The notes beneath the pieces were generated by a model. That model did no database searches, was not told where the DNA came from, and saw nothing but the letters and a program-made list of their open reading frames with translations. 64,000 nt of DNA from a virus: IMG/VR virus record IMGVR_UViG_3300006893_000001. The stretch is one strand, 5' to 3'. The position numbers were made by a program, and so were the translations under genes. Shown here one piece after another: positions 1,814 through 62,614 of the stretch; position 1 is the stretch's first letter; every line of letters starts with the position of its first letter.

Positions 1814-1998
1814 TTCGACTCCTCCGTTAATGCGAATCTTGCTGCATCCGAACGTACTCGTTTGCCAGAACAAGGAAGTGTTAAACCAAAACGACGAATC
1901 ATACACACTAATGTGTAATAATGTGAACCGTAAGCTTCAGCAATAGACATCGATGTATAGACTTTGTTCTTGTGAAACTTGCTGCTTAGGACTGACAT
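1810..1998 (-). CDS. hypothetical protein (62 aa)
   Basis: TGATG overlap with GAT-like gene stop and ATGA overlap with the next gene; no domain recognised. Confidence 0.45.
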   Translation of the reverse strand: MSVLSSKFHKNKVYTSMSIAEAYGSHYYTLVCMIRRFGLTLPCSGKRVRSDAARFALTEESK

Positions 1999-2786: not shown

Positions 2787-2790
2787 GTTC

Positions 2791-13089: not shown

Positions 13090-13100
13090 GAAAGGAAACT

Positions 13101-15340: not shown

Positions 15341-15414
15341 TGGGAAGTAGTGTAGCGGCAACACGCGTGGTTTGGGACCATGTATTGCGGGTTCGACTCC
15401 TGTCTTTCCAACCA
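15341..15414 (+). tRNA. tRNA-Pro (anticodon UGG)
   Basis: Acceptor TGGGAAG/CTTTCCA, anticodon loop TTTGGGA, T-loop TTCGACT, CCA encoded. Confidence 0.85.
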
Positions 15415-15421
15415 TAACATC

Positions 15422-15450
15422 CTCGGCCTTGCGTGCAATGCCGAGTTTTT
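15422..15450 (+). terminator. terminator-like hairpin inside the tRNA array
   Basis: CTCGGC-N12-GCCGAG (inner TTG/CAA pairs) followed by TTTTT; abuts tRNA-Phe start. Confidence 0.5.
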
Positions 15451-15524
15451 GTCGGGACAGCTCAAAGGTAGAGCATCGGTCTGAAAAGCCGAGGGTCTTG
15501 GTTCGATTCCAAGTCGCGACACCA
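15451..15524 (+). tRNA. tRNA-Phe (anticodon GAA)
   Basis: Anticodon stem TCGGT/GCCGA, loop CTGAAAA, T-arm CTTGG-TTCGATT-CCAAG, CCA encoded; one acceptor mismatch. Confidence 0.85.
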
Positions 15525-15528
15525 ATAT

Positions 15529-15605
15529 GCCCGAGTAGCCCAATTGGAAGAGGCGTTGGTCTTAGAAACCAAGCGTTACAGGTTCGAGTCCTGTGTCGGG
15601 TACCA
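15529..15605 (+). tRNA. tRNA with Leu anticodon UAG but class-I (5-nt) variable loop
   Basis: Loop CTTAGAA, stem TTGGT/ACCAA, Leu-like 3-bp D stem TAGCCCAATTGGAAGAGGC, A73, CCA; no long extra arm. Confidence 0.65.
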
Positions 15606-15608
15606 AAT

Positions 15609-15682
15609 GGTTCTGTTGCATAATGGAAGTGCATGCCCCTGTCCAGGGTAAAGCGCGGGTTCGATTCCCGCCAGAATCGCCA
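15609..15682 (+). tRNA. tRNA-Asp (anticodon GUC)
   Basis: Acceptor GGTTCTG/CAGAATC, loop CTGTCCA, T-arm GCGGG-TTCGATT-CCCGC, CCA encoded. Confidence 0.85.
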
Positions 15683-15683
15683 T

Positions 15684-15757
15684 GGGGATTTCGTTCAACG
15701 GCAGGACCACTGCCTTGCAAGCAGTGTATTAGGGTTCGATTCCCTAAGTCTCCACCA
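15684..15757 (+). tRNA. tRNA-Ala (anticodon UGC)
   Basis: Stem ACTGC/GCAGT, loop CTTGCAA, T-arm TAGGG-TTCGATT-CCCTA, CCA encoded. Confidence 0.85.
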
Positions 15758-15761
15758 ATGT

Positions 15762-15835
15762 TGTCTTGTAGTATAAGGGCATTACGGTCGGCTGTTAACC
15801 GACTTATGAGGGTTCGAGTCCTTCCGAGACAGCCA
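15762..15835 (+). tRNA. tRNA-Asn (anticodon GUU)
   Basis: Stem GTCGG/CCGAC, loop CTGTTAA, T-loop TTCGAGT, CCA encoded. Confidence 0.85.
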
Positions 15836-15836
15836 T

Positions 15837-15908
15837 GCCCTTATAGCTCAGTAGGAAGAGCGTCAGTCTTGTAAACTGATGAGGCCGGTTCGAATCCGGA
15901 CTGGGGCT
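15837..15908 (+). tRNA. tRNA-Thr (anticodon UGU)
   Basis: GCTCAGTAGGAAGAGC D-arm, stem TCAGT/ACTGA, loop CTTGTAA; two mismatches at the acceptor base; no encoded CCA. Confidence 0.75.
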
Positions 15909-15910
15909 CC

Positions 15911-15988
15911 GCACGCTTGATGTTTAACGGACAAGCATGTCTGCCTTCCAAGCAGAACGAACGGGTTCGAATCCCGTAGTGTGCTCCA
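15911..15988 (+). tRNA. tRNA-Gly (anticodon UCC)
   Basis: Acceptor GCACGCT/AGTGTGC, stem TCTGC/GCAGA, loop CTTCCAA, enlarged D region, CCA encoded. Confidence 0.8.
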
Positions 15989-16000
15989 AGTTTAGAAAAT

Positions 16001-16050
16001 GTTTCCGTTCGGCTCGCGACTGTACGGAAGCCAGGAGCCGCGAGCTCCTG
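16001..16050 (+). ncRNA. structured spacer RNA of unknown function (possible pseudoknot)
   Basis: 8-bp helix 16001-08/16024-31; 7-bp hairpin 16032-38/16044-50; loop 16011-18 can alternatively pair with 16039-46 (8 bp). Confidence 0.35.
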
Positions 16051-16053
16051 TGA

Positions 16054-16125
16054 TGCAGGGTCTTAAGGCAAGACCGCGGTCTCATAAGCCGCCGGGTTGA
16101 GGTTCGAGTCCTCTCTCTGCAACCA
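16054..16125 (+). tRNA. tRNA with CAU anticodon (Met or Ile2), compact D-arm
   Basis: Acceptor TGCAGGG/CTCTGCA, stem GCGGT/GCCGC, loop CTCATAA, T-loop TTCGAGT, CCA; only 15 nt between acceptor and anticodon stems. Confidence 0.65.
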
Positions 16126-16126
16126 T

Positions 16127-16198
16127 GGTAGAGATAGTGTAGTGGCAGCACGGCAGGCTGTGAACCTGTTGGCTAGGGTTCGATTCCCGACTTTACCC
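16127..16198 (+). tRNA. tRNA-His (anticodon GUG)
   Basis: Acceptor GGTAGAG/CTTTACC, loop CTGTGAA, discriminator C; nucleotide -1 is T, so no encoded G-1. Confidence 0.8.
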
Positions 16199-16204
16199 CA
16201 ATGT

Positions 16205-16279
16205 ACGCTCGTGGTATAACGGATGTGCCTCCGGCTACGAACCGGTTGTATGCGGGTTCGATTCCTGTCGAGCGTGCCA
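16205..16279 (+). tRNA. tRNA-Arg (anticodon ACG)
   Basis: Perfect acceptor ACGCTCG/CGAGCGT, loop CTACGAA, CCA encoded. Confidence 0.85.
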
Positions 16280-16280
16280 T

Positions 16281-16355
16281 AACTCCTTCGCCAAGTGGGA
16301 AGGCGGCGGTCTGCAAAACCGCCAAGAGCGGGTTCGATTCCCGCAGGAGTTTCCA
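16281..16355 (+). tRNA. tRNA-Cys (anticodon GCA)
   Basis: Perfect acceptor AACTCCT/AGGAGTT, stem GCGGT/ACCGC, loop CTGCAAA, CCA encoded. Confidence 0.85.
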
Positions 16356-16356
16356 T

Positions 16357-16447
16357 GTAGAGGTAGTCCAAGTGGCTGAAGGCATCCGGCTGTAACCCGG
16401 ATACGTCGCAAGGCGTCTCGTTGGTTCGAATCCAACTCTCTACACCA
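16357..16447 (+). tRNA. tRNA-Tyr (anticodon GUA), class II
   Basis: Stem TCCGG/CCGGA, loop CTGTAAC, long variable arm, CCA encoded. Confidence 0.85.
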
Positions 16448-16448
16448 C

Positions 16449-16540
16449 GGATGTTTGTCTGAGAGGTTGAAGGTGGTCGCCCGCTAAGCGACTTAGGTAG
16501 TAAAGTGCCTACGGAGGTTCGAATCCTCCAACATCCGCCA
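16449..16540 (+). tRNA. tRNA-Ser (anticodon GCU), class II
   Basis: Perfect acceptor GGATGTT/AACATCC, loop CCGCTAA (C at position 33), long variable arm, CCA. Confidence 0.8.
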
Positions 16541-16545
16541 AGTTT

Positions 16546-16631
16546 GGATGATGCCGCTGAATGGTCGGCGAACGGTCTTGAAAACCGTGGGGACTGAAAG
16601 GTTCGGGGTTCGATTCCTCAATCATCCGCCA
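16546..16631 (+). tRNA. tRNA-Ser (anticodon UGA), class II
   Basis: Perfect acceptor GGATGAT/ATCATCC, stem ACGGT/ACCGT, loop CTTGAAA, long variable arm, CCA. Confidence 0.85.
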
Positions 16632-16633
16632 AT

Positions 16634-16709
16634 GCGCTTGTAGCCCAACGGCAGAGGCAGCGGCTTCAAAACCCGCTCAGTAGTGGTTCAAATCCACTCT
16701 TGCGCACCA
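16634..16709 (+). tRNA. tRNA with Leu anticodon CAA but class-I (5-nt) variable loop
   Basis: Loop TTCAAAA closed by a C-C mismatch, D-arm TAGCCCAACGGCAGAGGC like 15529 tRNA, A73, CCA; two T-T acceptor mismatches. Confidence 0.6.
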
Positions 16710-16712
16710 TGT

Positions 16713-16787
16713 ACTCCGTTCGTCTAACTGGCAGGACGGCTGACTCTGAATCAGTAAATCGGGGTTCGAATCCCTGATGGAGTGCCA
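16713..16787 (+). tRNA. tRNA-Gln (anticodon CUG)
   Basis: Acceptor ACTCCGT/ATGGAGT, loop CTCTGAA, CCA; near-duplicate of the next tRNA. Confidence 0.85.
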
Positions 16788-16791
16788 ATGT

Positions 16792-16866
16792 ACTGGGTTC
16801 GTCTAACTGGCAGGACGGTGGACTTTGAATCCACCTATCGTGGTTCGAATCCATGACCCAGTGCCA
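16792..16866 (+). tRNA. tRNA-Gln (anticodon UUG)
   Basis: Perfect acceptor ACTGGGT/ACCCAGT, stem GTGGA/TCCAC, loop CTTTGAA, CCA. Confidence 0.85.
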
Positions 16867-16869
16867 AAT

Positions 16870-16941
16870 ATCGTCGTGGTATAACGGATGTGCCTCCGCC
16901 TTCTAAGCGGAACGATGCGGGTTCGACTCCTGCCGACGATG
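16870..16941 (+). tRNA. tRNA-Arg (anticodon UCU)
   Basis: Perfect acceptor ATCGTCG/CGACGAT, stem TCCGC/GCGGA, loop CTTCTAA; no CCA. Confidence 0.85.
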
Positions 16942-16944
16942 CAT

Positions 16945-17020
16945 ACTCGGGTAGCTTAGTGGCTAAAGCGCCTGTCCTACAAACAGGTTAGCGGAGGTTC
17001 GACTCCTCTTCCGAGTACCA
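16945..17020 (+). tRNA. tRNA-Val (anticodon UAC)
   Basis: Stem CCTGT/ACAGG, loop CCTACAA (C at position 33), T-arm GGAGG-TTCGACT-CCTCT, CCA. Confidence 0.8.
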
Positions 17021-17021
17021 T

Positions 17022-17096
17022 ACCTGTGTGGCGCAATGGCAGCGCAACCGGCTTTTAACCGGATGGTTGCGGGTTCAAGTCCCGCTGCAGGTACCA
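17022..17096 (+). tRNA. tRNA-Lys (anticodon UUU)
   Basis: Loop CTTTTAA, T-arm GCGGG-TTCAAGT-CCCGC, CCA. Confidence 0.85.
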
Positions 17097-17097
17097 T

Positions 17098-17169
17098 GCT
17101 CGCGTGGCGCAATGGCAGCGCAGCCGGCTCTTAACCGGATGGTTGTAGGTTCGACTCCTACTGTGAGCA
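17098..17169 (+). tRNA. tRNA-Lys (anticodon CUU)
   Basis: Loop CTCTTAA; body nearly identical to the previous Lys tRNA; no CCA. Confidence 0.85.
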
Positions 17170-17175
17170 CATTAT

Positions 17176-17248
17176 ACTGGAGTAGCTAAATGGTTACGGC
17201 ACACGCCTGATAAGCGTGGGATTGATGGTTCGAATCCATCCTTCAGTA
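17176..17248 (+). tRNA. tRNA-Ile (anticodon GAU)
   Basis: Stem CACGC/GCGTG, loop CTGATAA, T-arm GATGG-TTCGAAT-CCATC. Confidence 0.85.
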
Positions 17249-17249
17249 C

Positions 17250-17322
17250 ACTAGGATAGCACAACGGTCAGTGCTCCAGGCTTATATCCTGGTCGATGTT
17301 GGTTCGAATCCAGCTCCTAGTA
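17250..17322 (+). tRNA. tRNA-Ile (anticodon UAU)
   Basis: Perfect acceptor ACTAGGA/TCCTAGT, stem CCAGG/CCTGG, loop CTTATAT. Confidence 0.8.
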
Positions 17323-17329
17323 CAGATTT

Positions 17330-17401
17330 GTTGGCGTAGTGTAACGGTAACACAGCAGCCTCTCAGACTGCGAAATTCGGGTTCAAATCCCGACGCTAAT
17401 A
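17330..17401 (+). tRNA. tRNA-Glu (anticodon CUC)
   Basis: D-arm GTGT-AACGGTA-ACAC, loop CTCTCAG with a C-A closing mismatch, T-loop TTCAAAT. Confidence 0.75.
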
Positions 17402-17402
17402 C

Positions 17403-17473
17403 GTTGACATGATGTAATGGAAACATCCTGCCCTTTCAAGGCGGTCATCCGGGTTCGAATCCCGGTGTCAATG
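17403..17473 (+). tRNA. tRNA-Glu (anticodon UUC)
   Basis: Acceptor GTTGACA/TGTCAAT, stem CTGCC/GGCGG, loop CTTTCAA. Confidence 0.85.
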
Positions 17474-17474
17474 C

Positions 17475-17545
17475 GGGCTGGGCGCTGAGCGCAGACGAGC
17501 CTCCAAAGCTTGTCGTGCTGGGTTCAATTCCTAGACGGCCCGCCA
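17475..17545 (+). tRNA. tRNA-Trp (anticodon CCA), compact D-arm
   Basis: Stem CGAGC/GCTTG, loop CTCCAAA, T-arm CTGGG-TTCAATT-CCTAG, CCA; D region only 14 nt (GCGC-TGA-GCGC). Confidence 0.7.
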
Positions 17546-39443: not shown

Positions 39444-40121
39444 TTAGACGAACGCAAGCCAGACTCGCTGCCCGTCGGCCTTGACCTGATTGATGAGTGC
39501 CTTGGCAGTGAATGTCGATTCGCCTGCCGGAAGCGGATTGTAAATCGTAATATAGACAGCAGATTTTCCTTGCTGCTGAGCGCCAAGCGCTCCGAATGTT
39601 CCAAGGCCACCGGAGCGACCAAGGCTGATTATGTCGTTAACGTTGCCGTCTTCGACAATTTTGAACGTAAAGCCTACATTCGACAGGGCTGCTGCGATAC
39701 CCGCTCTTGTGGTAGCATTGCCCAGCAAAGCGTTGAGGATTCGAATACGAAAGTGGTCATCAGTTTCACTAGGTAGTCGTGGCAGCGTTCCTCCAAAGAA
39801 GTCAGAGCTTATTTGGTCTAGGTTTATATCGGTTGCAGTCTTGATGCGGGTCTGAAGCTTGACGTATGCGAGCATCGCGTAGAGGGAAGCAAACGGACCG
39901 GCGATAGCATTGAAGACGGAGTACAGTAGACCGCCAACTGCAAACGCTTGGTCTGACGCCCATGAACGCGGAAACAGGCTAAGTAGACGATACGTCCAGT
40001 CGCCTTGGTCATACGTTGGACCTGGAGGTCCAGGCGGCCCTGGAGGAGGAACGAAGGTAGGAGTCGTCGTTGTAGGCGACGAACTGATAACGAAAATATC
40101 AGGTGGAATGAAGAACGACAT
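39444..40121 (-). CDS. tail-associated protein with short PPG run (225 aa)
   Basis: PPPGPPGPPGPT near the N-terminus; sits between fibre genes. Confidence 0.6.
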   Translation of the reverse strand: MSFFIPPDIFVISSSPTTTTPTFVPPPGPPGPPGPTYDQGDWTYRLLSLFPRSWASDQAFAVGGLLYSVFNAIAGPFASLYAMLAYVKLQTRIKTATDINLDQISSDFFGGTLPRLPSETDDHFRIRILNALLGNATTRAGIAAALSNVGFTFKIVEDGNVNDIISLGRSGGLGTFGALGAQQQGKSAVYITIYNPLPAGESTFTAKALINQVKADGQRVWLAFV

Positions 40122-40252
40122 TAGCCAGCCGTAGTTCCAGCGGGAAAAATCTGACCAGTTTCATTCAACGGCGAAGTGCTACCTGACGTATTCGCTACGA
40201 TGAATACGTTGATTTTTTGTGCTACTGTACCAAAAGGAACTTCGTACGTCAT
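40121..40252 (-). CDS. small hypothetical protein (43 aa)
   Basis: TAATG coupling; below track cutoff. Confidence 0.35.
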   Translation of the reverse strand: MTYEVPFGTVAQKINVFIVANTSGSTSPLNETGQIFPAGTTAG

Positions 40253-40256
40253 CTAA

Positions 40257-41117
40257 TTATTCCCACAGAATGATGCACATCGCGGCACCATTTGAAAACA
40301 CAGACCCGGGTGCAAAATCCAAAGCGATAAATGTGTGCGGACCGCCATAGACGTTCATCACCAACGTCGTGAACTCCGCAATGTCTGAGTTGTTGCAAGT
40401 ACCGAACATATCAAGTCCAGGCTGCTGCGGAGCGGGTGAGAAGTAGACTGGAGTTGTGAAACCAGTTACATTGCCATCAATACCACTGTTGGTACCGTTT
40501 GCTGCGACTAATTCACGATCTGTTGACGTTGTTTGAGGGTTTGCTGCTTTCAAGAATTGAACAACAGCATTATCCCATGAAAATAGTGCAAGCTGGAATC
40601 CAGATGCAGAATCGCCACCGGACTGATTCTTAGAACGTTCAATAGTTAGAAGTACAGGATACGAGAACTGTCCACCCGCGGTACCGCGGAACAACATAAA
40701 TGCAAGACGGTTAGCATCACCAGTTACGTAGCTACGAAATAGTGTTGCATTGTTCTGGCCACAACCAAATAGCGTCGGAGTAAGGTAAACAACACCAGTT
40801 AGATTACCAGCTCCATCTGTAGAACTAGCGAACGAAACTCTAAGCGCAGGACGAGCGGCGTTATTATCTGAGCCGTACTCTAACTTCATGAACAGTGGTG
40901 TTGTTCCCTGAAGTGCGTCGTTCATACGCCAGATTTCATAGCCCTGAAACGTATAGTTGGCGACAGGAGCAAGAACAGTCGTCCAGTCTATTTGACCGGT
41001 ATCCGCTGTACGAATCCAATTGACTGCGAGAAGAGCGGCACGAAGAGCCAAACCCCAAAGACGGAAATTCGCGTCTGTGGTCTGGTCCGGTGCCTGGTCG
41101 AAGGTCGTAATTGGCAT
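40257..41117 (-). CDS. tail fibre/receptor-binding candidate (286 aa)
   Basis: Beta-rich sequence; position in the fibre cluster. Confidence 0.6.
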   Translation of the reverse strand: MPITTFDQAPDQTTDANFRLWGLALRAALLAVNWIRTADTGQIDWTTVLAPVANYTFQGYEIWRMNDALQGTTPLFMKLEYGSDNNAARPALRVSFASSTDGAGNLTGVVYLTPTLFGCGQNNATLFRSYVTGDANRLAFMLFRGTAGGQFSYPVLLTIERSKNQSGGDSASGFQLALFSWDNAVVQFLKAANPQTTSTDRELVAANGTNSGIDGNVTGFTTPVYFSPAPQQPGLDMFGTCNNSDIAEFTTLVMNVYGGPHTFIALDFAPGSVFSNGAAMCIILWE

Positions 41118-41122
41118 TATCG

Positions 41123-41881
41123 TTACTCCATTATCAAGTATTCAAATTGGACGTTCACTGTGTGAGTACTTCCGCTTTGATTCTGAATTGCTAGGTAAAT
41201 CGTTGTATTCGGAACCAAGTCATCGTTTGACCCGAATGGTTCTGGGCTAGTCGTAATAGTCAAATTCAATGCAGTTGTTACACCGTCGAAAATGACGCCA
41301 GTACCAGCAAGTGGAAGCGTAGAACTTGGACGACTAGCATCAGCTGCGCGAGCCGCCGCGGTCTGATACATACGAACTCTAGCAGGACGGTCAGTCGTCA
41401 CAGCGAGCAAAATGAATGACTTCGCGATAACTACGTTGGTTGCGTTGTCTGTTGCTCCAGCCACGAGTGAAACAGTTGTAATGTTCGTATTAGTACGAGG
41501 TGCAAGAACACTTCCGCCAGGACCTGGAGGTCCAGGAGGTCCCGCTGGTCCGCCAGGACCAACCGGTCCAACACTTCCAGTAGCACCAGTCAATCCCGCA
41601 GGTCCAGCTACACCTGGAGGTCCTGCAATGAGAATGACTTCGGATGGAAGCGGTGTTGTAAGTTCACCCGTTGGCATTGCACTAGACGATGTGACGAAGT
41701 CATACGCTGTTCCAATAGCGAGCGATACAGGCGACGTACGGCCATTGATATCAGTTGTTGCAACTCCAGCGACGTTACCAGGAATATGCGCAAGACCGTG
41801 TGGATAGAACGTAACAACGACACCTTGCAGCGGGTTACCGTTGAAGTCCTCAAGTACGAACTGATAGGCGAAGTTAGCCAT
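41123..41881 (-). CDS. collagen-like tail fibre protein
   Basis: 12 uninterrupted G-X-Y triplets; N-terminal domain paralogous to 41881..43155. Confidence 0.75.
   Translation of the reverse strand: MANFAYQFVLEDFNGNPLQGVVVTFYPHGLAHIPGNVAGVATTDINGRTSPVSLAIGTAYDFVTSSSAMPTGELTTPLPSEVILIAGPPGVAGPAGLTGATGSVGPVGPGGPAGPPGPPGPGGSVLAPRTNTNITTVSLVAGATDNATNVVIAKSFILLAVTTDRPARVRMYQTAAARAADASRPSSTLPLAGTGVIFDGVTTALNLTITTSPEPFGSNDDLVPNTTIYLAIQNQSGSTHTVNVQFEYLIME
41513..41623. repeat. collagen-like G-X-Y coding repeat
   Basis: GPPGVAGPAGLTGATGSVGPVGPGGPAGPPGPPGPGG. Confidence 0.9.
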
Positions 41882-43155
41882 TATGAAATTTGTCCTGGGT
41901 AATGATACAAGTCACCGGCGAGCACGCTCGGCGCTGCATAGTGGGCATCTGAACCGTTAATATTAGCAAACAAACCTACTCGAAGCAAAGTCACAGCCGT
42001 CCAGTCAGGACCCGACGTATCTGTGAACGAACGGTCAGCAATCTGACCTGGTGCGCGAAGAATAAACATAATATGTGTCGAATCAACAATTACCATGCAC
42101 AACTCAATGAACGACCAACGATTCGCGGCTGTATCTGTCAATCCTGCTGAGTATAGTGGTCCACGGTAAGTTAGCGCACCTGTTGTGAAAGCGTCACCAG
42201 TATATGCATATGCAACAGCTTGGCCATTATTGAGGAACCAGATATATCCGCCAATTGTGCTATTCTGAACACCAACGCCGGGTGATTCATTTCCTACGCT
42301 AGTATCAACTTTTACCCATGAACTAAGGACAAACATTTGAAGTGGAGCTGCAATCGTGATTGGGCTCTCGTTAGCTTCAAGTTCTGTTCCGCCAGATACC
42401 CAATTAAGAATATACGAACCATCAGACTGCACAGTTTTTGTGATGCCCGCTGTCCCTGTTACTGTCAAATGCGTACGAGTTGAACCACCTCCGCCAGATG
42501 CTGGTTTGTTTTTCCACTTAGTCGAAGATGTTTCGTACGTCAATACGTCGTTATTTGCAGGCGCTGTAATAAGCACATCGTTATCAGCTACAAGTGTAGG
42601 ACCTACGTTATCCCATTTGCTTGTACCGGAATTATATGCGAGGATATTGCCGTTCGCAAGTCCAGATAGAGCGACGTCAGTAAGCGCAGCGAGGGTAGAC
42701 GCTCCTGGAGCACCGGCTGCGGCGAGCACATTCCAGTACGTTGCATTCGGTGGTGTATGATTCGTGTGCGCAAGAATGCAAACATAGGATGAGCCGCTCA
42801 ACGAAACCGCGTCATCAACGTGATAGGCAGTTGCTCCTGACCACGCTCCAGTCCAGTTAAGACCTACTCCAGGCGCTCCTGGAGGTCCAGGGACAAGCGC
42901 AAACGTCCCAACCACGGGATTAGGCGCTGTGAACGTCCCCGATGGCATAAGAACTGATGTGGTTGTAAAATCGTACGATGAGCCTATGTCGAGTACAGCG
43001 GGCGGTTGAACGAAGCCAGCAGCGTCAGTTATTCCTGAAGCTACAATGTTTCCAAGAATCTGAGGAGCACCGTGAGGATAAATATCAATGTTAACGTTTG
43101 GCAGTGGGTTGCCAGACGAATCAGCGACCTTCAGTGCATACTGAAAGCTAGCCAT
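41881..43155 (-). CDS. tail fibre protein (424 aa)
   Basis: N-terminus MASFQYALKVADSSGNPLPNVNIDIYPHG parallels MANFAYQFVLEDFNGNPLQGVVVTFYPHG; GPPGAPG. Confidence 0.7.
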   Translation of the reverse strand: MASFQYALKVADSSGNPLPNVNIDIYPHGAPQILGNIVASGITDAAGFVQPPAVLDIGSSYDFTTTSVLMPSGTFTAPNPVVGTFALVPGPPGAPGVGLNWTGAWSGATAYHVDDAVSLSGSSYVCILAHTNHTPPNATYWNVLAAAGAPGASTLAALTDVALSGLANGNILAYNSGTSKWDNVGPTLVADNDVLITAPANNDVLTYETSSTKWKNKPASGGGGSTRTHLTVTGTAGITKTVQSDGSYILNWVSGGTELEANESPITIAAPLQMFVLSSWVKVDTSVGNESPGVGVQNSTIGGYIWFLNNGQAVAYAYTGDAFTTGALTYRGPLYSAGLTDTAANRWSFIELCMVIVDSTHIMFILRAPGQIADRSFTDTSGPDWTAVTLLRVGLFANINGSDAHYAAPSVLAGDLYHYPGQIS

Positions 43156-52396: not shown

Positions 52397-53977
52397 TTAG
52401 CGGGCTGGCTGCGCGCCGGTGTTAGTTACAACAGTCTGGCCAGCAGTCATATTGATTACGAACTTATCGATGACAGCCAAGTACTTGATAATGACAGTGC
52501 AAATCAAGAAGCCTGCGGCAATCGAGTTGGGTGGGTTGTTATTCAGGTCGCACTGGACACTGAAGTCGTCGATTTGACGATTGGCCAGCAATCCACCAAG
52601 GAAGCCGTTCATCGCAGCCGTTACCGACTCACGAGTTGGGTCATCTTGACGAGTTGACTGGTTCAAGTTGACAAACTGGCCCATAACTTCGCTTACGAAG
52701 GCTGAAGTCAAGAAGTTCGTCATGTTAGCATAAGTGATTTCACTTGTTGCTGGATTTGTAGATGTGCTCTTGCCGTGACGCAATCCGAAGGCACGAGCGC
52801 CCGGAATCGGAATCGCAATCAAGTTAATACCAGCCTGCTCAAGCGCTGACAAGTCATCGAATGAGTACGGCTGTGGCGCTGTTCCAAGAGTCGCTTCAGT
52901 TCCAACAAGTGCATAAGCCTGGTTGTTGCCGGGTGACTGGTGCGCCGCAAGACGGCACATAATACCAGCTGCGACTGACGCCGGTGGAACCTGGACGTTC
53001 CCACCGACGAACGAGTCGAAGTAGGTCACGTAATCCTTGAGCAGTACTGCCCAAGGACTGTTGAGACCAGCCGCGAGAATCGCTGAAACCGCCGTAGCAA
53101 CTCCAGTTCCCTCCGGCAAACTGCAAAATGCGATAGACTTCTCAGACTGAGCTAGAGCTTGGAGAGTTGTCCAAACCGTGCTATCTGAGTTACCACATAG
53201 CCACATAGCATTGACGCCTGTTTCACGAAGCGCATACGCACCTGTTCGTGCACCGGCTCCGCCATCAACACCAATGAGGTCCGCTGATGTGATGCCCGTA
53301 GCACCATCAAGTCCGCCAGTCAATGTAATTGTTTGACCCACTGTTGGAGCTTCAAGAGCTGAAGCTGCAATTGCTGCGGTTACGTACTGAGACGGTTGAG
53401 TATATCCAGCCTGACCATTGTTAATGGCGTCAGCAATATTCTGCCACAACGCGCCTGAACCAGCACCGTCTGAGATGCGGTCATAAACTTCTGGAAGATT
53501 CGGAACGCCTGGTTGAATAACAACCTTCCAAGTCTTTGTGCCGGTCTGATAGTTTGAACCTTTACCAAGGAAAACCTGAATTGTGTTACCGTACGAACCG
53601 GTGTACTTACCTGTGAGCGTCAAACCTGTTGCGGGCGCTGTGTCGAGCAGTGTTCCTGACGCAGCAGCGTCAGTCGTTGCGTGTACAACACGAACAGCTT
53701 TTACGCCACCGCGAGGGAGTTGCTTAAGGAATAGTGAACCCTCTTGAACGAGGTCAAATCCTGAATTGATTGGAGTACCAAAGTTCTGCATTAACTCTTG
53801 TGGAGTGCCGCAAGTTACTGGAGTATTTTTCGGACCCCAACCTGCTCCGCCGGCCAAACCACCTTGATTTGTGTTTCCGCCACCGACAAGAACTGGCTGA
53901 GGCGGATTGACTACGACATATACGTCGTCAACGCCGAAAGCGTTCTGCGAGAGCTGACCATAGATTAGCTGGCCCAT
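52397..53977 (-). CDS. contractile tail sheath protein
   Basis: 526 aa; VPPASVAAGIMCRLAAHQSPGNNQAY...LEQAGINLIAIPIPGARAFGLRHGKST matches the sheath C-terminal pattern. Confidence 0.85.
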   Translation of the reverse strand: MGQLIYGQLSQNAFGVDDVYVVVNPPQPVLVGGGNTNQGGLAGGAGWGPKNTPVTCGTPQELMQNFGTPINSGFDLVQEGSLFLKQLPRGGVKAVRVVHATTDAAASGTLLDTAPATGLTLTGKYTGSYGNTIQVFLGKGSNYQTGTKTWKVVIQPGVPNLPEVYDRISDGAGSGALWQNIADAINNGQAGYTQPSQYVTAAIAASALEAPTVGQTITLTGGLDGATGITSADLIGVDGGAGARTGAYALRETGVNAMWLCGNSDSTVWTTLQALAQSEKSIAFCSLPEGTGVATAVSAILAAGLNSPWAVLLKDYVTYFDSFVGGNVQVPPASVAAGIMCRLAAHQSPGNNQAYALVGTEATLGTAPQPYSFDDLSALEQAGINLIAIPIPGARAFGLRHGKSTSTNPATSEITYANMTNFLTSAFVSEVMGQFVNLNQSTRQDDPTRESVTAAMNGFLGGLLANRQIDDFSVQCDLNNNPPNSIAAGFLICTVIIKYLAVIDKFVINMTAGQTVVTNTGAQPAR

Positions 53978-54061: not shown

Positions 54062-54997
54062 TTACGAGCCGGAGCCAGGTGGAATTGGTGCAAGTAGAGG
54101 AATAATGTCGAGCGAAGCCGAAGCAGATTCGACTTGAGTCTCGCCATACGATTGAGTAACCACAAAATCAACCTGGTAAATCATCTGACGTACGTAAATG
54201 GTGTCTCTTTCCTCCATATCCAGGTCGTTAATTCCTTGATAACGAAAGAGAGAAACGGTGCCGTCTATTTCAGTCTGACGAAATGCATCAGACATAAACT
54301 GACGAATGACGTCGGCCAAATGTTCTCTGTCAGGACGTGTTGGCGCCCACACTTCGATGAACACATCCTTAAGCGAACGACCTACTGCGTAATACACGGT
54401 ATATTGCTGCGGAAGCGGCGGACTTCCCGTTGCGACAAATGGAGCCGCTTGCGTCCAGTCAGTCCCAATAGTGATGTATCCAGACTGAGGATAAAACGGT
54501 CCAATTGGTGACAACGACGCGTATACCTTGTACTTTGTCTGCCCAGCCAACGGCGGTGGAGACGTAACCTTCAAGAAATGGTTAACATCAATCACGATTT
54601 GAGTCTCAGGTCCTGCACCAGTTTCAATCGTTCCGTTGTAATACACAATCACGACGTAATACGTCAGTGCGGGATTCGTTCCACCAGATACTGGTTGACA
54701 CGTAGGTGACGGCGGAATTGGTCCAAGTGGAACTGTAAGCTCCGCAACGTCGCGATTGATGTAGGGGTAAAGCTTTTCAGTCTTTGAACTATAGAACGCT
54801 ACTTGTGCAAGGTGGTTCTCCAAGCGCGTAGTTACGTGATACTGTATTGGATGGCCTACGCCAAATATAGTCGATAGAATCGTTCCGGCTCTTGGGTCGT
54901 TATTGATAAAATTAGGCGGAACGTTAGGTTGATATGGTACACAACCAACTGTAACGTTATGTTTCAGATTATCCAATACCTGGTCAATCGACGGCAT
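54062..54997 (-). CDS. virion structural/neck protein (311 aa)
   Basis: Position upstream of the sheath gene; no motif recognised. Confidence 0.55.
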   Translation of the reverse strand: MPSIDQVLDNLKHNVTVGCVPYQPNVPPNFINNDPRAGTILSTIFGVGHPIQYHVTTRLENHLAQVAFYSSKTEKLYPYINRDVAELTVPLGPIPPSPTCQPVSGGTNPALTYYVVIVYYNGTIETGAGPETQIVIDVNHFLKVTSPPPLAGQTKYKVYASLSPIGPFYPQSGYITIGTDWTQAAPFVATGSPPLPQQYTVYYAVGRSLKDVFIEVWAPTRPDREHLADVIRQFMSDAFRQTEIDGTVSLFRYQGINDLDMEERDTIYVRQMIYQVDFVVTQSYGETQVESASASLDIIPLLAPIPPGSGS

Positions 54998-55346
54998 TCA
55001 ACGCCTCATAAATGGCATGATATAGTTGCATACTTGAAAACGGTTTCACAAGACAGTGAAATTCGCCACTGCGCCCTGAAGCTCTTTGGGCCATGGACGT
55101 CACAAGTAGCACCTTGCATAGATTCTCTTCCCGACACACTCTAGCTACTTCAAGCCCAGTCATCAAAATCATCTGTACGTCGAGTAGAGCAATATCAGGC
55201 TTATGCTCACGAATAGCAGACATAGCCCGTTCGCCGTTCTCACAAATAGCCAGCACCTCTGCACCTCCAGGCATATGTTGAAGTGGACCGAGCATTCGGC
55301 CTTGCATAACCTTATTGTCGTCAGCTACGATAATTCTTAGTGACAT
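54984..55346 (-). CDS. stand-alone CheY-like response-regulator receiver (REC) domain
   Basis: Start trimmed to MSLRIIVADDN; acidic pair DD, phospho-acceptor in DIALLDVQM, LLVTS, LVKPF. Confidence 0.75.
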   Translation of the reverse strand: MSLRIIVADDNKVMQGRMLGPLQHMPGGAEVLAICENGERAMSAIREHKPDIALLDVQMILMTGLEVARVCREENLCKVLLVTSMAQRASGRSGEFHCLVKPFSSMQLYHAIYEALNAVD

Positions 55347-55653
55347 CTTCCACCACAAATGAGACTTTCGCGTCATATTGACGGTCGAGTGCCTCTATTT
55401 TCTTCTGTAACTCAATCATAACATCACTGTCTGGGTCCGATTGCTTGTCAATCCAGTTCTGACTTACGGCTAAAGGACGAATAGCTTCAGTAACCATTGC
55501 GATTTTATCTGCAATTTGTTTGTGCGCCTCAGCTTCAAACTTAAGCACACATTCTTCTCGCGCCGCCTGTAATATCTTCATGCGCTTATCAATCTCGTGC
55601 GCAAGTTTTTCAGTACGAAGAATGTAGTCACTAAGCGACTCACCTTTAGGCAT
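55321..55653 (-). CDS. coiled-coil hypothetical protein (110 aa)
   Basis: ORF track; overlaps the REC start by 26 nt. Confidence 0.5.
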   Translation of the reverse strand: MPKGESLSDYILRTEKLAHEIDKRMKILQAAREECVLKFEAEAHKQIADKIAMVTEAIRPLAVSQNWIDKQSDPDSDVMIELQKKIEALDRQYDAKVSFVVEDVTKNYRS

Positions 55654-55654
55654 A

Positions 55655-56410
55655 TTAGATGAACACTGAGTGCATTGTTAACTGCCAGCCTTGAAGACCA
55701 GTAGTGAAGACATGCGCAATCTGAATTTGATAACGATTGCCGACTGCATCTGCGACCATATCGCCTGGTTGAATCTGAAGACCAGGAAGAAGCGGACACC
55801 ATCCGTAATAAACACCACGAGGCGTAGACGTAGGATACTTAATTTCTTGACCAGGACCCATGCGAATATGAGGCTGAAGGCCCATCGGAATAACGGCAGG
55901 TGAACCAGTTCCCTGCATATCGTAGAAACCGTTAGTAAGAACGGAAATCCATTCGGTAAACTTTGTTTGACCTTGATAGTCGACTTCACCCTGAAGTGGT
56001 TGGTCCACGATACTATCGTCGTTTGGACGAGTAAGAGCACCTAATACTTCACAACGAGCGAATATAGGAGCGCGCATTGACGTCACATCCACGAGACAGA
56101 AAATACGTCCATCTGGCGTGTCCGTAAGACTTGGCCCAACTTCAACGAGCATATCGCCCATCTTCAATTGACGTGTATCCACCATCGCAGTATACCACTG
56201 ATTATACAATTCAGTTTGTTCGAGTAATGTCTTAGGCGGCATGAAAGAAAAACGGGCGTTGAAGCTAGAAATGACTTTGTTCGAAGTTTGAATGATACTT
56301 CCAGTAGAAGCGTTGTTTAGACGATAGACATCATATTGGTTACCAATAACTTTGGCACCCAATCCCAATCCACGTCGCAGCGCGTTGTCAATACGAGCAA
56401 TCTGCGACAT
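55655..56410 (-). CDS. head-tail joining region protein (251 aa)
   Basis: Position only. Confidence 0.55.
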   Translation of the reverse strand: MSQIARIDNALRRGLGLGAKVIGNQYDVYRLNNASTGSIIQTSNKVISSFNARFSFMPPKTLLEQTELYNQWYTAMVDTRQLKMGDMLVEVGPSLTDTPDGRIFCLVDVTSMRAPIFARCEVLGALTRPNDDSIVDQPLQGEVDYQGQTKFTEWISVLTNGFYDMQGTGSPAVIPMGLQPHIRMGPGQEIKYPTSTPRGVYYGWCPLLPGLQIQPGDMVADAVGNRYQIQIAHVFTTGLQGWQLTMHSVFI

Positions 56411-58221: not shown

Positions 58222-59679
58222 TTAGTCGGCTGTTGCAACCTCAACCACAACCGCTGACTTGTATCGCGAAGCCGTAGCTGACGGGATAACAGTCTTGTTG
58301 ATTGTAGCGTTGGTTGGAACCACGAATCCGCCGATGTACCACCACATCTGGGACAGAATCTGTCCAGCGCGGTCAATCGGTAGACGAGTGACAAAGGCGA
58401 TGCGCTCAACGAGACGGATATCGCTTACGCCCATATCCGGCATGTTAGAGATGGCATCATCAACACCAGCGAACGGAGATTCTTGCAGCCACGCTGTGCC
58501 GCACACGATAGCACGGCGAGTCGCAGCAACCTGAAGTCCCGAATTTGTGTTGTCGGCGCTTGAGTACACCGGCGCGTTCGTTGTTGGGACGAATGTTACG
58601 CCGAAGTTCTGTGACACGCGGGCACCCTTGAAGTCAGGAGACTCCATCTGGCCTTGTGACATAATCTGGTACTGAGCATCTGTGAAGAACTGAGCATCGA
58701 CAATCGGGTCGATGTAGCATGGATACGTTCCGTTCGAAAGCGGAGGCTTAATTCCGTTACGACGAAGCTGAGCTACAGCGTCGATGATGAGCTGCGCACC
58801 GATTGTGTCGGTAGCAGCCAACTCGTAGCGGTTCAACTTACCGTTAGGACGGAGAACCTGCTGCGCGTCGAACGCCTGAATTGTGTCGCCAACAACAAGC
58901 GCATCGGCCAAGTCAGACGCAAGTGTCAACTTACCAGACCAACCAGTGTTCAAACCAGAAGCCTGCATAGAAGACGCGTTGCCTGATGTTGGATACGTTC
59001 CGTCGTAAACTACGCCGGTAACGTTCTTTGTCTCAACGATACCTGTCAAGTGGGTAACCTTAACAGCCAGCGTATACGTTGCCGATGTTGCCTGTGGAAG
59101 GCCAGTCGAGAATACGTTGCCGTTAATTGTGACCTGTTGGAACGCCTTGTCGAATCCAAGAACGTTGTCAACGTGGCAGTTAGCCGCAGAGCCAACAGCA
59201 GCATACGATTCGTCAACAAAGGTGCTTCCACCTTCATAGGCTTGGAAGCCAAGACGAGCGGCACGAAGGTCGAGAGACAGAGCAGCCTGCTCAGCAAGAT
59301 TGTCAACGTTCTCCTTGAAGAGAGAAGCGATAATCTGTTCGTCCTGAATCAGGTTCAAGTCAATTTCTTGACCCTGAAGCATTCCGATGCCAACCGCGAA
59401 CTGTTCCATTGGGAAAGCTGGATACGCAGAACCGACGCCGGCAGGAGTTCCTGCGTTCAACGGTCCTGTCTGCGATGCTGGCGCAATATCTTCCAGAACA
59501 GGAGAGATACGACCTGCACGAGAGTAAATCATCGTTTCGCCTGAACGCTTCTCGAGCGGCAGGACATACGCTGACTTACGATAAACGTTATTTGCGCCAA
59601 GCTTCAACAGCCAACGCTTGTCCAACATGTTCTGTTGGAAAGCTGGCTGAAGGACGGCGGGAAAGTTTTCAAAGCCCAT
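58222..59679 (-). CDS. major capsid protein
   Basis: Follows the ClpP-like protease; long 5' UTR and own terminator; PLEKRSGETMIYSR resembles the N4-gp56/HK97-fold N-terminal region. Confidence 0.65.
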   Translation of the reverse strand: MGFENFPAVLQPAFQQNMLDKRWLLKLGANNVYRKSAYVLPLEKRSGETMIYSRAGRISPVLEDIAPASQTGPLNAGTPAGVGSAYPAFPMEQFAVGIGMLQGQEIDLNLIQDEQIIASLFKENVDNLAEQAALSLDLRAARLGFQAYEGGSTFVDESYAAVGSAANCHVDNVLGFDKAFQQVTINGNVFSTGLPQATSATYTLAVKVTHLTGIVETKNVTGVVYDGTYPTSGNASSMQASGLNTGWSGKLTLASDLADALVVGDTIQAFDAQQVLRPNGKLNRYELAATDTIGAQLIIDAVAQLRRNGIKPPLSNGTYPCYIDPIVDAQFFTDAQYQIMSQGQMESPDFKGARVSQNFGVTFVPTTNAPVYSSADNTNSGLQVAATRRAIVCGTAWLQESPFAGVDDAISNMPDMGVSDIRLVERIAFVTRLPIDRAGQILSQMWWYIGGFVVPTNATINKTVIPSATASRYKSAVVVEVATAD

Positions 59680-59848: not shown

Positions 59849-60562
59849 TTAAGAATGTCTGCGGCGGAACCGCTTGTACACCACAGGGCTCGATACTTCA
59901 TCTACCAAGTTTTCGTCAAGTGCTTCTTGCGCAGATAAGAACCAATGACGGCGGTCATATTTCTTTCGGAAGTAGGTCCACGGCTTGCCGGTACGAGCCG
60001 CAAATAGCTCATCACAGGCCTGGTCTTGTCGTTTTACATAGTCTATGTAGTCTTCGTGATGGTCGAGACGATGTTCTTCGCTTCCATAATGGAAGGCGTG
60101 CAACAAAAAGAAACTGTAGGGTTCGCAAGTTCTCTTAGTTGCGGCCTGTAAAATGATGGCGCCCATGGAGTAGGCCCCACCTTGAACATGAATATTTACT
60201 GGGCGACCTTCGCGTTGAATGCCCTGAATGGTAGAAACAAGGCCAAGGCCAGCATCAACTTCGCCGCCTGGGCTCGTCATGTACATATATATGGGCTTTT
60301 TACTGGGTAGCGTAAGATGAACATCCATCAGCTCCTGTTGACGCGCCTTCATATTCTCTTCGCTTGTTTCACCGTGGAACAGAATATGACCCGCGTGGGT
60401 GGAGTTGACTGGCTCATACGCCTCTGATGGAACTTTGTCCATCATCTGCGGCACAATGTCTGCAATAGCGCTATGCACATTCTTGACTTTCAGCGTACGA
60501 AGACGCTGTTCAAGAATCGTAGTGAACCAATACGAAAGTTCCTGTGGTAGGATACGAGGCAT
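59849..60562 (-). CDS. ClpP-family (S14) prohead protease
   Basis: YMYMTSPGGEVDAGLGLVSTI, GGAYSMGAIILQA, LLHAF. Confidence 0.85.
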   Translation of the reverse strand: MPRILPQELSYWFTTILEQRLRTLKVKNVHSAIADIVPQMMDKVPSEAYEPVNSTHAGHILFHGETSEENMKARQQELMDVHLTLPSKKPIYMYMTSPGGEVDAGLGLVSTIQGIQREGRPVNIHVQGGAYSMGAIILQAATKRTCEPYSFFLLHAFHYGSEEHRLDHHEDYIDYVKRQDQACDELFAARTGKPWTYFRKKYDRRHWFLSAQEALDENLVDEVSSPVVYKRFRRRHS

Positions 60563-61867
60563 TTACTTCGCCTTTCTAGCTACGTACTCTTTGTCGCGAA
60601 AGATGCTGAACCCATTTTCGATAGGGACGATTTCAACACGGTGATGTTTGTGGTCTTTTGTAAGAGTCGCAACGCCAAAGCCTTGTGACCAGTTAAGACG
60701 AGTTCCGCCTGAGGGCACAAGCGTACGGTTCAAGACCATTGGGTCTTGATGGTCGCCGAGACGCATAAGACCTGGAATGCAGTGCGTTGTATAGACTTTG
60801 TGACCATCCTTATAATGAACTGTGTGGCCATTGACAGCAATTTGTGGATGATGACCATGGATGATGCTAGCGCGCAGGTCGGTTTTAGACGTTAAACCCT
60901 GGTGCTGACAAACCAAGTCGTCAGCGAGCCAGTGTTGGCCGCCAGGATATTCGGCCTCACATTTGATATTGAGTTGGTCGAAGCAAAGTAGATTCTGAAG
61001 GGATAGGACTGGCCAGTGGTCCGGTGTATCCGCACGCTTAAGACCGTAGCAGGCTTTTGCATTGGTGATGATGTACTCCTGAATACGACGCTCATGATTG
61101 CCCGGAATGAAGATGATTTCGCACTTCGGTCCAACAATCCGACGGACTTGAAGTAGAAACTCATAAGCATACTGAATCGCAGGCTGCAGCGTTTTCTGGA
61201 ACTCCGGTACCTGAAGATAGCGACTAATTTCGCTACAGTCAAGCAGGTCACCGAGGATTACGACTTTCTGTGGATGAACATCTTGCAAAGCTTGAAGACA
61301 GACGTCGACAGCCTTCTCGTCGTGCATATTTACAAGCTTACCGTTAATCCACCAATACCCAATCTGAGCATCTGGGATTATAAAGACATAATCAAGATTA
61401 CGTGAACGAGTAGCTGTAAACGGAATATATTCAATAGCTCGTTGTGTTGCAGGTTGCATTGGCGGCCATTGAGGACCTGTTTTCCAAGTCGGGTCGAGGA
61501 CAAGCTGAGTTGAATACAAACCTTCACGAACGAACTTATGTGTACCGTCGGCTTGCTTTATCTTAGCGCCTACGCCCCATTCATTAAGTTTAATCTTGCT
61601 GATTTTACCGATTGATTCAACAGGAACGCCGCTACGGTCAAGCAACTCTTTGAGACGATTAAGACCTTCTTCCTTAGAAGGCTCCAGCACAGACTTAGGA
61701 ACTTCACCGCGAGATGCGGCGAGCAACCAATCCTGAGCTGTACGAAGAGAAATTCGACCATTTTTGCCTATACACTTAGGCGCGATAGACTTACCTGCGG
61801 CGGAAATGCTGCCATGCTCTGCGATGAGTTTAGCAGCAACTTCCGCTGTTAGTTCAGAACGCTTCAA
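60563..61867 (-). CDS. calcineurin-like metallophosphoesterase with N-terminal helical/HTH-like region
   Basis: IIPDAQ, VVILGDLLD, IFIPGNHE, IIHGHH. Confidence 0.7.
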   Translation of the reverse strand: MKRSELTAEVAAKLIAEHGSISAAGKSIAPKCIGKNGRISLRTAQDWLLAASRGEVPKSVLEPSKEEGLNRLKELLDRSGVPVESIGKISKIKLNEWGVGAKIKQADGTHKFVREGLYSTQLVLDPTWKTGPQWPPMQPATQRAIEYIPFTATRSRNLDYVFIIPDAQIGYWWINGKLVNMHDEKAVDVCLQALQDVHPQKVVILGDLLDCSEISRYLQVPEFQKTLQPAIQYAYEFLLQVRRIVGPKCEIIFIPGNHERRIQEYIITNAKACYGLKRADTPDHWPVLSLQNLLCFDQLNIKCEAEYPGGQHWLADDLVCQHQGLTSKTDLRASIIHGHHPQIAVNGHTVHYKDGHKVYTTHCIPGLMRLGDHQDPMVLNRTLVPSGGTRLNWSQGFGVATLTKDHKHHRVEIVPIENGFSIFRDKEYVARKAK

Positions 61868-61891: not shown

Positions 61892-62614
61892 TTACGCTTT
61901 GGACTTCTTACCGAATGAGTCCCACATTTCTTGTGCAACTTCGTCGGTTTGCTTCATAGCGTCTTTTGCTTTGCCCTCTTTGCCTTCGTTGGAAGCAGGA
62001 GCAACTTTACGAGTCACTCGGCGGTCAGTACTTTCAGACCCTTCGGTCTTGAACAAGTACGAACGCTCTTCTTTCAACTTAGCAATAGCTGCGTCGACGC
62101 CAGTCAAGTTTCCGTTTTCGTACTTGACTTCTTTCATATCGAGAAAGAGAAGCGCATCGTCAGGATTACGTAGTCCCGCAGCTGCAGCAACTGCTTTGAT
62201 TTCTGCATTCACCTCGCGCTTGTCGCGGGCAGAAAGTTCTTTGTCGAACTCTGCCTTCGCATCTGCGAGGTCTTTCTGTGCTTTATCTGCAAGCTTCTTA
62301 AACTCACCAGCTTCTGCAAGCTTAGCGTTTTCAATAGCGTCGAGCTTCGCCTTGGCATCAGCGGCGTCTTTCTTTGCCTGACGCGCTTCAGTCTCAGCTT
62401 CATTGCGCTCTCGCTCAAGACGTTCTATGTACTTTGGGTCCTTAGCGCGCTCAGCGGCGTCTGCAGCTTTCTTATCAGCGGCAGCTTTATCGGCTGCGGC
62501 TTTATCAGTAGCGGCTTTGGCATCAGCGGCAGCTTTATCGGCTGCGGCTTTATCAGTAGCGGCTTTGGCATCAGCGGCAGCTTTATCGGCTGCAGCTTGT
62601 TCTTCAGTTGTCAT
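61892..62614 (-). CDS. scaffolding protein
   Basis: Ala/Lys/Asp-rich coiled coil with repeated DKAAADAKAATDKAAA; sits between portal and protease. Confidence 0.75.
   Translation of the reverse strand: MTTEEQAAADKAAADAKAATDKAAADKAAADAKAATDKAAADKAAADKKAADAAERAKDPKYIERLERERNEAETEARQAKKDAADAKAKLDAIENAKLAEAGEFKKLADKAQKDLADAKAEFDKELSARDKREVNAEIKAVAAAAGLRNPDDALLFLDMKEVKYENGNLTGVDAAIAKLKEERSYLFKTEGSESTDRRVTRKVAPASNEGKEGKAKDAMKQTDEVAQEMWDSFGKKSKA
62474..62594. repeat. 48-nt tandem repeat (about 2.5 copies) inside the scaffold gene
   Basis: ATCAGCGGCAGCTTTATCGGCTGCGGCTTTATCAGTAGCGGCTTTGGC repeated exactly at 62474 and 62522. Confidence 0.9.

Follow-up and report, generated by a model that had tools for sequence, protein, structure and literature searches.

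What is a receiver domain of bacterial two-component signaling doing among the genes that lie between the capsid and the tail sheath of a phage? Two-component signaling is the main sensory wiring of bacteria. In this work, we addressed the question in a 64,000-nucleotide (nt) stretch (hereafter the window) of the IMG/VR virus record IMGVR_UViG_3300006893_000001, which represents most of a ~73-kb tailed-phage contig. A first-pass annotation, made from the sequence alone, had described the product of a minus-strand gene at 54984..55346, 120 amino acids (aa) in length, as an orphan CheY-like receiver domain encoded among head-tail completion genes. We found that this protein is a genuine single-domain receiver (REC) and that it represents a new, clade-wide, vertically inherited, and structurally trimmed receiver family that is fixed in a neck gene cluster. 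Its role is considered in the last section, where we tentatively favor a decoy or phosphate sink.

A genuine single-domain receiver

The identity of the protein was established from Pfam, a phmmer search of PDB, an AlphaFold2 model, Foldseek, and the residues that are invariant among 29 family members. Residues 5-112 match the Pfam family PF00072 (Response_reg; profile positions 1-110/111) with E = 1.1e-12 and a score of 48.5 bits, compared with a gathering score of 30.2. The phmmer search of PDB returned 63 receivers at E <= 1e-3. The AlphaFold2 model, based on an alignment of 14 family members, has a predicted local distance difference test (pLDDT) value of 92, a predicted template modeling (pTM) score of 0.87, and the (beta-alpha)5 topology, with strands (E) and helices (H) in the order E-H-E-H-E-H-E-(short H)-E-H. 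Helix 4 of this model is a single short turn (residues 85-89). The top Foldseek matches were the receivers of AraT, NarL, Spo0A, EutV, and DesR, with template modeling (TM) scores of 0.80-0.87.

A catalytic receiver is defined by five residues, namely, DD, D, T/S, and K, and a pseudo-receiver lacks at least one of these (PMC12632262). The window protein has all five (D9, D10, D56, T83, and K101) within the signatures T83-S84-M85-x-Q87 and K101-P102, such that the four motifs quoted in the first-pass annotation (D9/D10, D56, T83, and K101-P102) are real. A pseudo-receiver identity was ruled out because the five residues are both present and conserved. The acceptor Asp and the Lys, whose absence from an alignment the annotation had named as evidence against a receiver, are invariant in the 29 members. 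The protein stops 19 residues past K101 without a second domain, as expected from the earlier statement that it has no output domain, and no fusion to another domain was found in any ortholog (114-148 aa). With this intact and invariant active site, the receiver is predicted to be competent for phosphorylation. The annotation had also raised, as an alternative, a structural protein of the virion with no more than a flavodoxin-like fold; this is unlikely because the active site is intact.

The open reading frame (ORF) of the receiver extends over 54984..55376 on the minus strand, and its in-frame ATGs would give products of 130, 120, or 107 aa. The first ATG corresponds to 54984..55376 (130 aa) and the ATG at 55346 to the product of 120 aa. 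Orthologs start in register at MSLRI... (e.g., P0048, MSLRVILMDD), which supports the start at 55346. The in-frame extension from the earlier ATG (MTRKSHLWWK; 55347..55376, minus strand), delimited from the ORF list and the ortholog starts, is probably not translated as part of the receiver. A public gene call of 107 aa (P0001; 54984-55304) starts at the third in-frame Met (M24). This call would cost the receiver its beta1 strand and the acidic DD pair, and is probably wrong. With the start at 55346, the two gene overlaps reported previously were confirmed: 26 nt with the upstream ORF (55321..55653, minus strand) and 14 nt with the downstream gene, which starts at 54997.

The receiver family and its place among neck genes

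Two conserved genes flank the receiver on the same strand. The upstream anchor of the receiver slot is a head-to-tail region gene encoding a 251-aa protein (55655..56410, minus strand; phrog_14605, 2.9e-14), for which 21 metagenomic homologs with 37-60% identity were found. On the downstream side is a conserved neck or tail-terminator-like gene encoding a 311-aa protein (54062..54997, minus strand; phrog_13532, based on the PHROG match and alignment), which has a lineage-specific insertion of ~100 aa. Profile searches of these flanking genes against PDB and Pfam gave no match, and the AlphaFold2 model of the 251-aa protein (pLDDT 52) was too poor for use. The two proteins are homologs of gp32 (hhalign probability 84%, E = 7e-6) and gp33 (hhalign probability 94%, E = 1e-7), respectively, of Ralstonia phage Raharianne, and we infer their neck functions from position and this distant homology.

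To compare gene order, loci around the 251-aa homologs and the receiver family members were fetched from Logan, JGI, ENA, IMG/VR, and metagenome contigs, and all of their ORFs were searched with hidden Markov models of the three families (251-aa, receiver, and 311-aa). The receiver gene was found 0-1.1 kb downstream of the 251-aa homolog and on the same strand in 19/19 loci with enough downstream DNA. The shared gene order is the 251-aa gene, a variable slot, the receiver, and the 311-aa neck gene, ahead of the sheath. At the 17 junctions checked (the window and 16 related loci), the stop of the receiver gene and the start of the 311-aa homolog overlap by up to 14 nt or are at most 2 nt apart. 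Beyond this junction, a sheath gene follows in the window and in those loci for which gene calls exist. In the window, the tail sheath is the next large gene downstream (52397..53977, minus strand; phrog_23, 1.1e-43; Pfam Phage_sheath_1C) and the major capsid protein forms the upstream boundary of the head-to-tail string (58222..59679, minus strand; phrog_1357, 4.1e-10), which agrees with the earlier placement of the receiver inside the late head-to-tail gene string. Together, the related loci fall into about a dozen separate lineages, and their GC contents of 49-64% suggest a broad host range.

The content of the slot that separates the 251-aa gene from the receiver is plastic, with a small helical ORF in several lineages, a Cys-rich ORF in loci L008 and L011, an HNH endonuclease in L011, and no insert in L014 and L020. 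In the window, the slot is occupied by a small helical ORF of 110 aa (55321..55653, minus strand) that was defined as an ORF and has no family match. Because slot content differs between lineages, this ORF is not an obligate partner of the receiver. It was also considered as a hidden Hpt/DHp partner and rejected, as it has no family match and is not conserved across relatives. Among the related loci, the slot inserts are located at 7747-9236 in L011, 7901-8320 in L008, and 8097-8832 in L009; the Cys-rich ORF is 139-155 aa in length, and the slot of L009 is a 735-nt gap without a called gene. In L011, the gene caller reduced the receiver to a 63-aa fragment despite a full-length ORF. In L017, the forest-soil contig ENA ERZ1759910 ZJ_forest3275967, the receiver-bearing structural module is at 561-581 kb of 608,731 bp; this location near one end suggests a prophage or a chimeric assembly.

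Conservation within the family was assessed in 29 distinct members, whose identities to the window protein are 25-46%. Both residues of the acidic pair, the acceptor D, and the K are present in 29/29, and the T is present in 28, with an S in the remaining one. Further invariant residues are G38, G64, S84 (T+1), Q87 (T+4), and P102 (K+1), and the family signature TS[M]xQ is likewise invariant. Residues with at least 80% conservation are located at the active-site loops (D9, D10, D56, M59, T83, S84, Q87, K101, and P102) or at generic positions of the receiver fold (e.g., G38, P50, and G64). Variability is highest in helices alpha1 and alpha5. The spacing from T to K varies from 16 to 22 residues (18 in the window and 22 in CheY), with variable length of the alpha4 region, which indicates that some members can do without helix 4. 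An aromatic residue at K-3, as in the Y-T output switch, is missing in 28/29 members (C98 in the window protein), and this argues against classical allosteric output. Six members of one sub-lineage (P0174-P0176 and P0181-P0183; 139-148 aa) have a proline-rich acidic C-terminal tail of 15-30 residues that ends in DDG or DDA. This tail is missing from the window receiver.

The receiver gene is under purifying selection, with dN/dS values of 0.22-0.36 among L008, L009, and L011, compared with 0.14 for the adjacent structural gene. It evolves faster than its neighbors (identity 36% vs 53%; dN/dS 0.22 vs 0.14). Across pairs of loci, the identity of the receivers correlates with that of the 251-aa proteins (Pearson r = 0.91, Mantel p ~2e-4), which indicates one ancient acquisition followed by vertical inheritance rather than repeated capture from hosts. 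In a profile search of 5.8 billion proteins, the phage family scored at least 101 bits and cellular receivers at most 90 bits, and the best cellular matches were NarL/FixJ (GerE, PF00196) and AmiR/NasT (ANTAR, PF03861) regulators. An exhaustive phmmer search found just a few short proteins that are 38-48% identical to the receiver, and a word-indexed protein search with the receiver alone returned no match besides itself. The public gene call of 107 aa, looked up as an exact sequence, matched no contig. The family appears to be phage-specific and previously undescribed. The label "orphan" does not apply, as the receiver belongs to a vertically inherited family fixed at one position across an uncultured myophage clade.

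Searches of isolated phages with the region, the 251-aa gene, and the 311-aa gene gave no close relative at the DNA or protein level. Matches to the receiver in the phage genome collection were unrelated regulators, mostly from unannotated records and many from short metagenomic contigs. The sheath of the window is 38% identical to those of Ralstonia phages Raharianne, Hyacinthe, and Albius and 32% identical to that of Komagataeibacter phage phiKX1. In Raharianne, gp32 and gp33 are directly adjacent without a receiver between them, which indicates that the receiver is an accessory gene fixed in one clade and is not intrinsic to neck assembly. In phiKX1, genes of the same size and position are also adjacent, with only a weak match obtained to the downstream gene. 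Two alignments of the 251-aa family were also searched against GTDB genomes for prophages and hosts, without a match.

Genome setting and expression context

The genes of the window include those for DNA polymerase A, a DUF3854 protein, an SNF2 helicase, dCMP deaminase, thymidylate synthase, and Pam3 gp32/33/34-like proteins. The late block on the minus strand encodes a scaffold, a ClpP-like prohead protease, the major capsid protein, the sheath, a tape-measure-like protein, and baseplate J. In Pfam scans of essentially all ORFs of the window, HisKA, HATPase_c, and Hpt domains were not found, consistent with the earlier claim that the window has no histidine kinase, and these scans found no che genes.

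Sigma-70-like promoter matches and terminator-like hairpins at 51.5-60 kb were not above those in shuffled sequence, and a promoter or terminator specific to the receiver gene was rejected on this basis. One sigma-70-like match is located in front of the 110-aa ORF; shuffled sequence gives as many, so this match is not evidence of separate transcription. The simplest reading is that the receiver gene would be part of the late transcript.

A calcineurin-like phosphoesterase gene (434 aa; 60563-61867, minus strand; Metallophos E = 2e-7) is located in the head module, flanked by the scaffold (61892-62614) and the ClpP-like prohead protease (59849-60562). Among the related loci, a faint Metallophos gene is located upstream in the head region of L018. 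In L004, the place between scaffold and protease is instead taken by an RNase_H_2 gene. The Metallophos gene was considered as a dedicated partner of the receiver and rejected, as it is missing from some receiver-bearing lineages. Elsewhere in the window, there are 26 tRNA genes that cover most amino acids (15341-17545, plus strand), which is unusually many for a genome of ~73 kb. Two paralogous two-gene cassettes (1998-3795, minus strand, and 11740-14060, plus strand) are inverted and ~8 kb apart, each encoding Amidoligase_2 and a class-II glutamine-amidotransferase-like protein. Tail-fiber-like ORFs (39444-41881, minus strand) contain collagen-like GPPGPPGP runs, and the ORF beside them (41881-43155, minus strand) has a weak match to the carbohydrate-binding family CBM_5_12.

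Known receiver systems and candidate roles

Receivers of the NarL/FixJ type (e.g., DesR and Mycobacterium tuberculosis NarL) and the AmiR/NasT/EutV (ANTAR) type are the best matches to the phage protein in both sequence and structure (3b2n, DesR 4le0, 3eul, EutV 6ww6, and Rv1626 1s8n). They share with it the (beta-alpha)5 fold and the DD/D/T/K active site. Unlike these regulators, the phage protein lacks a GerE or ANTAR output domain, an aromatic residue at K-3, and a cognate kinase encoded in the window; the phage family also has its own invariant S at T+1 and Q at T+4, and alpha4 is shortened in the sub-lineage of the window. Identification as a NarL-family regulator was rejected since the receiver is closest to this type but has no GerE/LuxR helix-turn-helix output. 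CheY is among the significant matches and resembles the phage receiver in size, fold, and active-site quintet. However, the K-3 position is Cys in the window rather than the Tyr of CheY (Y106), and the alpha4-beta5-alpha5 face is variable in the family. The description "CheY-like" was not upheld, given that NarL/ANTAR receivers rank above CheY, that nearly all members lack the K-3 aromatic, and that the window has no che genes. The related suggestion that the phage hijacks chemotaxis was not supported, as the nearest cellular relatives are NarL/FixJ and AmiR/NasT (ANTAR) receivers.

Receivers that act without an output domain have precedents. CheY1 of Sinorhizobium meliloti is a standalone phosphate-sink receiver. 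DtcB, the standalone receiver of the Detocs defense system, has been proposed to absorb phosphate (bioRxiv 10.1101/2023.01.24.525353). DtcB and the phage protein are alike in being lone receiver domains without output and proposed absorbers of phosphoryl groups from a kinase. In contrast, DtcB is host-encoded in an operon with the kinase DtcA and the effector DtcC, whereas the neighbors of the phage receiver are structural genes at every locus. PADLOC defense models gave no match to the window receiver at E <= 0.01, where the presence of a DtcB model in PADLOC 2.0.0 is unconfirmed.

Among viruses, CDS-30 of Alteromonas phage V22 is a "CheY-like" receiver listed among auxiliary metabolic genes, and the receiver entries of phaeoviruses and giant viruses are hybrid kinases, i.e., long histidine-kinase proteins. 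Three PHROGs with receivers have no assigned function (731, 5982, and 20458), and BFVD contains about ten phage proteins with the receiver fold that are 11-26% identical to the window receiver in structural alignments. Homologs of spo0A in gut phages keep the DNA-binding output domain without the receiver (PMC10294663) and are thus the mirror image of the family described here, in which the receiver half is kept. The cREC domains of jumbo phages were proposed as cyclic-phosphate-processing receivers (PMC7824862). Unlike these divergent domains, which are linked to NAD/ADP-ribose or cyclic-nucleotide genes, the window receiver is a classical PF00072 domain in a structural context, and the cREC entries of BFVD match it with E = 0.03-0.05 and TM scores of 0.41-0.54. 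For the V22 gene, the PHROG families, and the phaeovirus and giant-virus entries, there is no report of clade-wide synteny within a neck module, and none of them has been characterized functionally. The earlier statement that no characterized example exists in a virion module was borne out in the phage genome collection, BFVD, and the literature searched.

The reading that we favor, with less than even confidence, is that the receiver may be expressed late and act on a host or defense kinase as a decoy or phosphate sink. The ancestor of this uncultured myophage clade would have acquired the receiver once, from a response regulator of the NarL/ANTAR type that lost its output domain, and the gene would then have reached fixation in its place between the neck genes. 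Sharing a transcript with late structural genes and coupled to them in translation, the receiver would be produced in large amounts late in infection. It would dock on a host histidine kinase or on the kinase of a two-component-type defense system, and D56 would take the phosphoryl group, such that the signal is diverted or drained from the kinase's own regulator. The target may be a kinase of the HisKA_3/NarL type, by ancestry, or a two-component-type defense kinase. Only the rim of the active site is kept and helices alpha1, alpha5, and alpha4 are variable, which suggests that catalysis matters while the docking partner differs between hosts, and a phosphate sink would fit this conservation pattern. 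By analogy, DtcB would be the nearest functional precedent.

Several points weigh against the decoy or sink. No phosphodonor, target, or host was found. A sink does not explain the constant abutment or overlap with the 311-aa neck gene, and the position kept over deep divergence would be equally compatible with an assembly-linked role. A sink would require fast autodephosphorylation, and this rate is not readable from sequence. In addition, anti-host genes are more often early than late. Neither sequence nor context links the receiver to Detocs, and the lack of a PADLOC match likewise leaves no direct link.

The main rival, which we consider unlikely, is that the receiver acts as an assembly factor or chaperone for the 311-aa protein, possibly as a phospho-dependent switch, or is a minor neck component. 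This would account for a gene that is placed between capsid and sheath, is present at every locus with enough downstream DNA, and abuts or overlaps the 311-aa gene at all junctions checked, a junction that is never broken even though the slot upstream is plastic. However, the Raharianne homologs of both flanking genes work adjacent to each other without a receiver, and it is not obvious why a structural protein would keep an invariant DD/D/T/K phosphorylation site. Moreover, the receiver has no conserved surface patch beyond the active-site rim, though the proposed partner is well conserved, and evolves faster than its neighbors. Given its small size, solubility, and location in a structural operon, with probable co-expression with virion proteins, the receiver could instead be packaged into the virion as an effector that is made late, ejected with the DNA, and acts on a host kinase or defense at the start of the next infection. 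We regard this as quite improbable: the protein has neither a packaging signal nor homology to known ejection proteins, and the acidic, proline-rich C-terminal tail of some members, which one might speculate to be a targeting peptide, is missing from the window protein.

The intact active site is also compatible with a sensor of metabolic state, in which autophosphorylation from acetyl phosphate or another small donor would report host energy and time assembly, lysis, or packaging, with the signal passed through a host-specific or phage partner. Conservation restricted to the active site fits a small-molecule donor, the scans of the window found no phage-encoded kinase, and the invariant small Ser at T+1 is at a position known to affect phosphorylation kinetics. 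Nevertheless, the lack of a conserved output surface or aromatic switch leaves the signal route unexplained and no regulated target was found, such that the sensor has about the same slim chance as the packaged effector. The restriction of conservation to the catalytic rim, including the family-specific Gln at T+4 and Ser at T+1, could also reflect an enzyme-like use of the fold for hydrolysis or processing of a phosphorylated small molecule or a cyclic nucleotide signal, for which cREC of jumbo phages is a precedent (PMC7824862). This is very improbable for a classical PF00072 receiver that scores well above threshold, matches cREC entries weakly, and has no NAD/ADP-ribose or nucleotide-processing genes adjacent. 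Finally, the slot also collects HNH endonucleases and small inserts, as would be expected if the receiver were a fragment of a host regulator that was captured recently and has no function, or if it were an artifact of assembly or annotation. The conservation data exclude functionless capture, as the gene is present in all 19 loci from independent samples, diverges together with the phage, has dN/dS below 0.4, and keeps an invariant active site, and we assign this explanation a negligible probability.

A broader possibility, to which we give a low probability with its two versions taken together, is that phosphoryl transfer may be built into the late program of the whole phage clade. In one version, the receiver would serve in counter-defense by draining a two-component-type, Detocs-like immune kinase that responds to late structural proteins. 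The other version would make it a phospho-switch or a virion-carried effector that is physically tied to the neck and, if true, the first element of two-component signaling to be integrated into virion morphogenesis or delivery. To our knowledge, very little is known on phage interference at the level of phosphotransfer, and this family offers a small and clean case in which possible interference of this kind, or else a new form of assembly control, could be tested. The family also shows a receiver in which only the chemistry is selected, with no aromatic switch, a dispensable helix 4, and an invariant T+1 Ser and T+4 Gln, and would be useful for understanding sink-type receivers generally.

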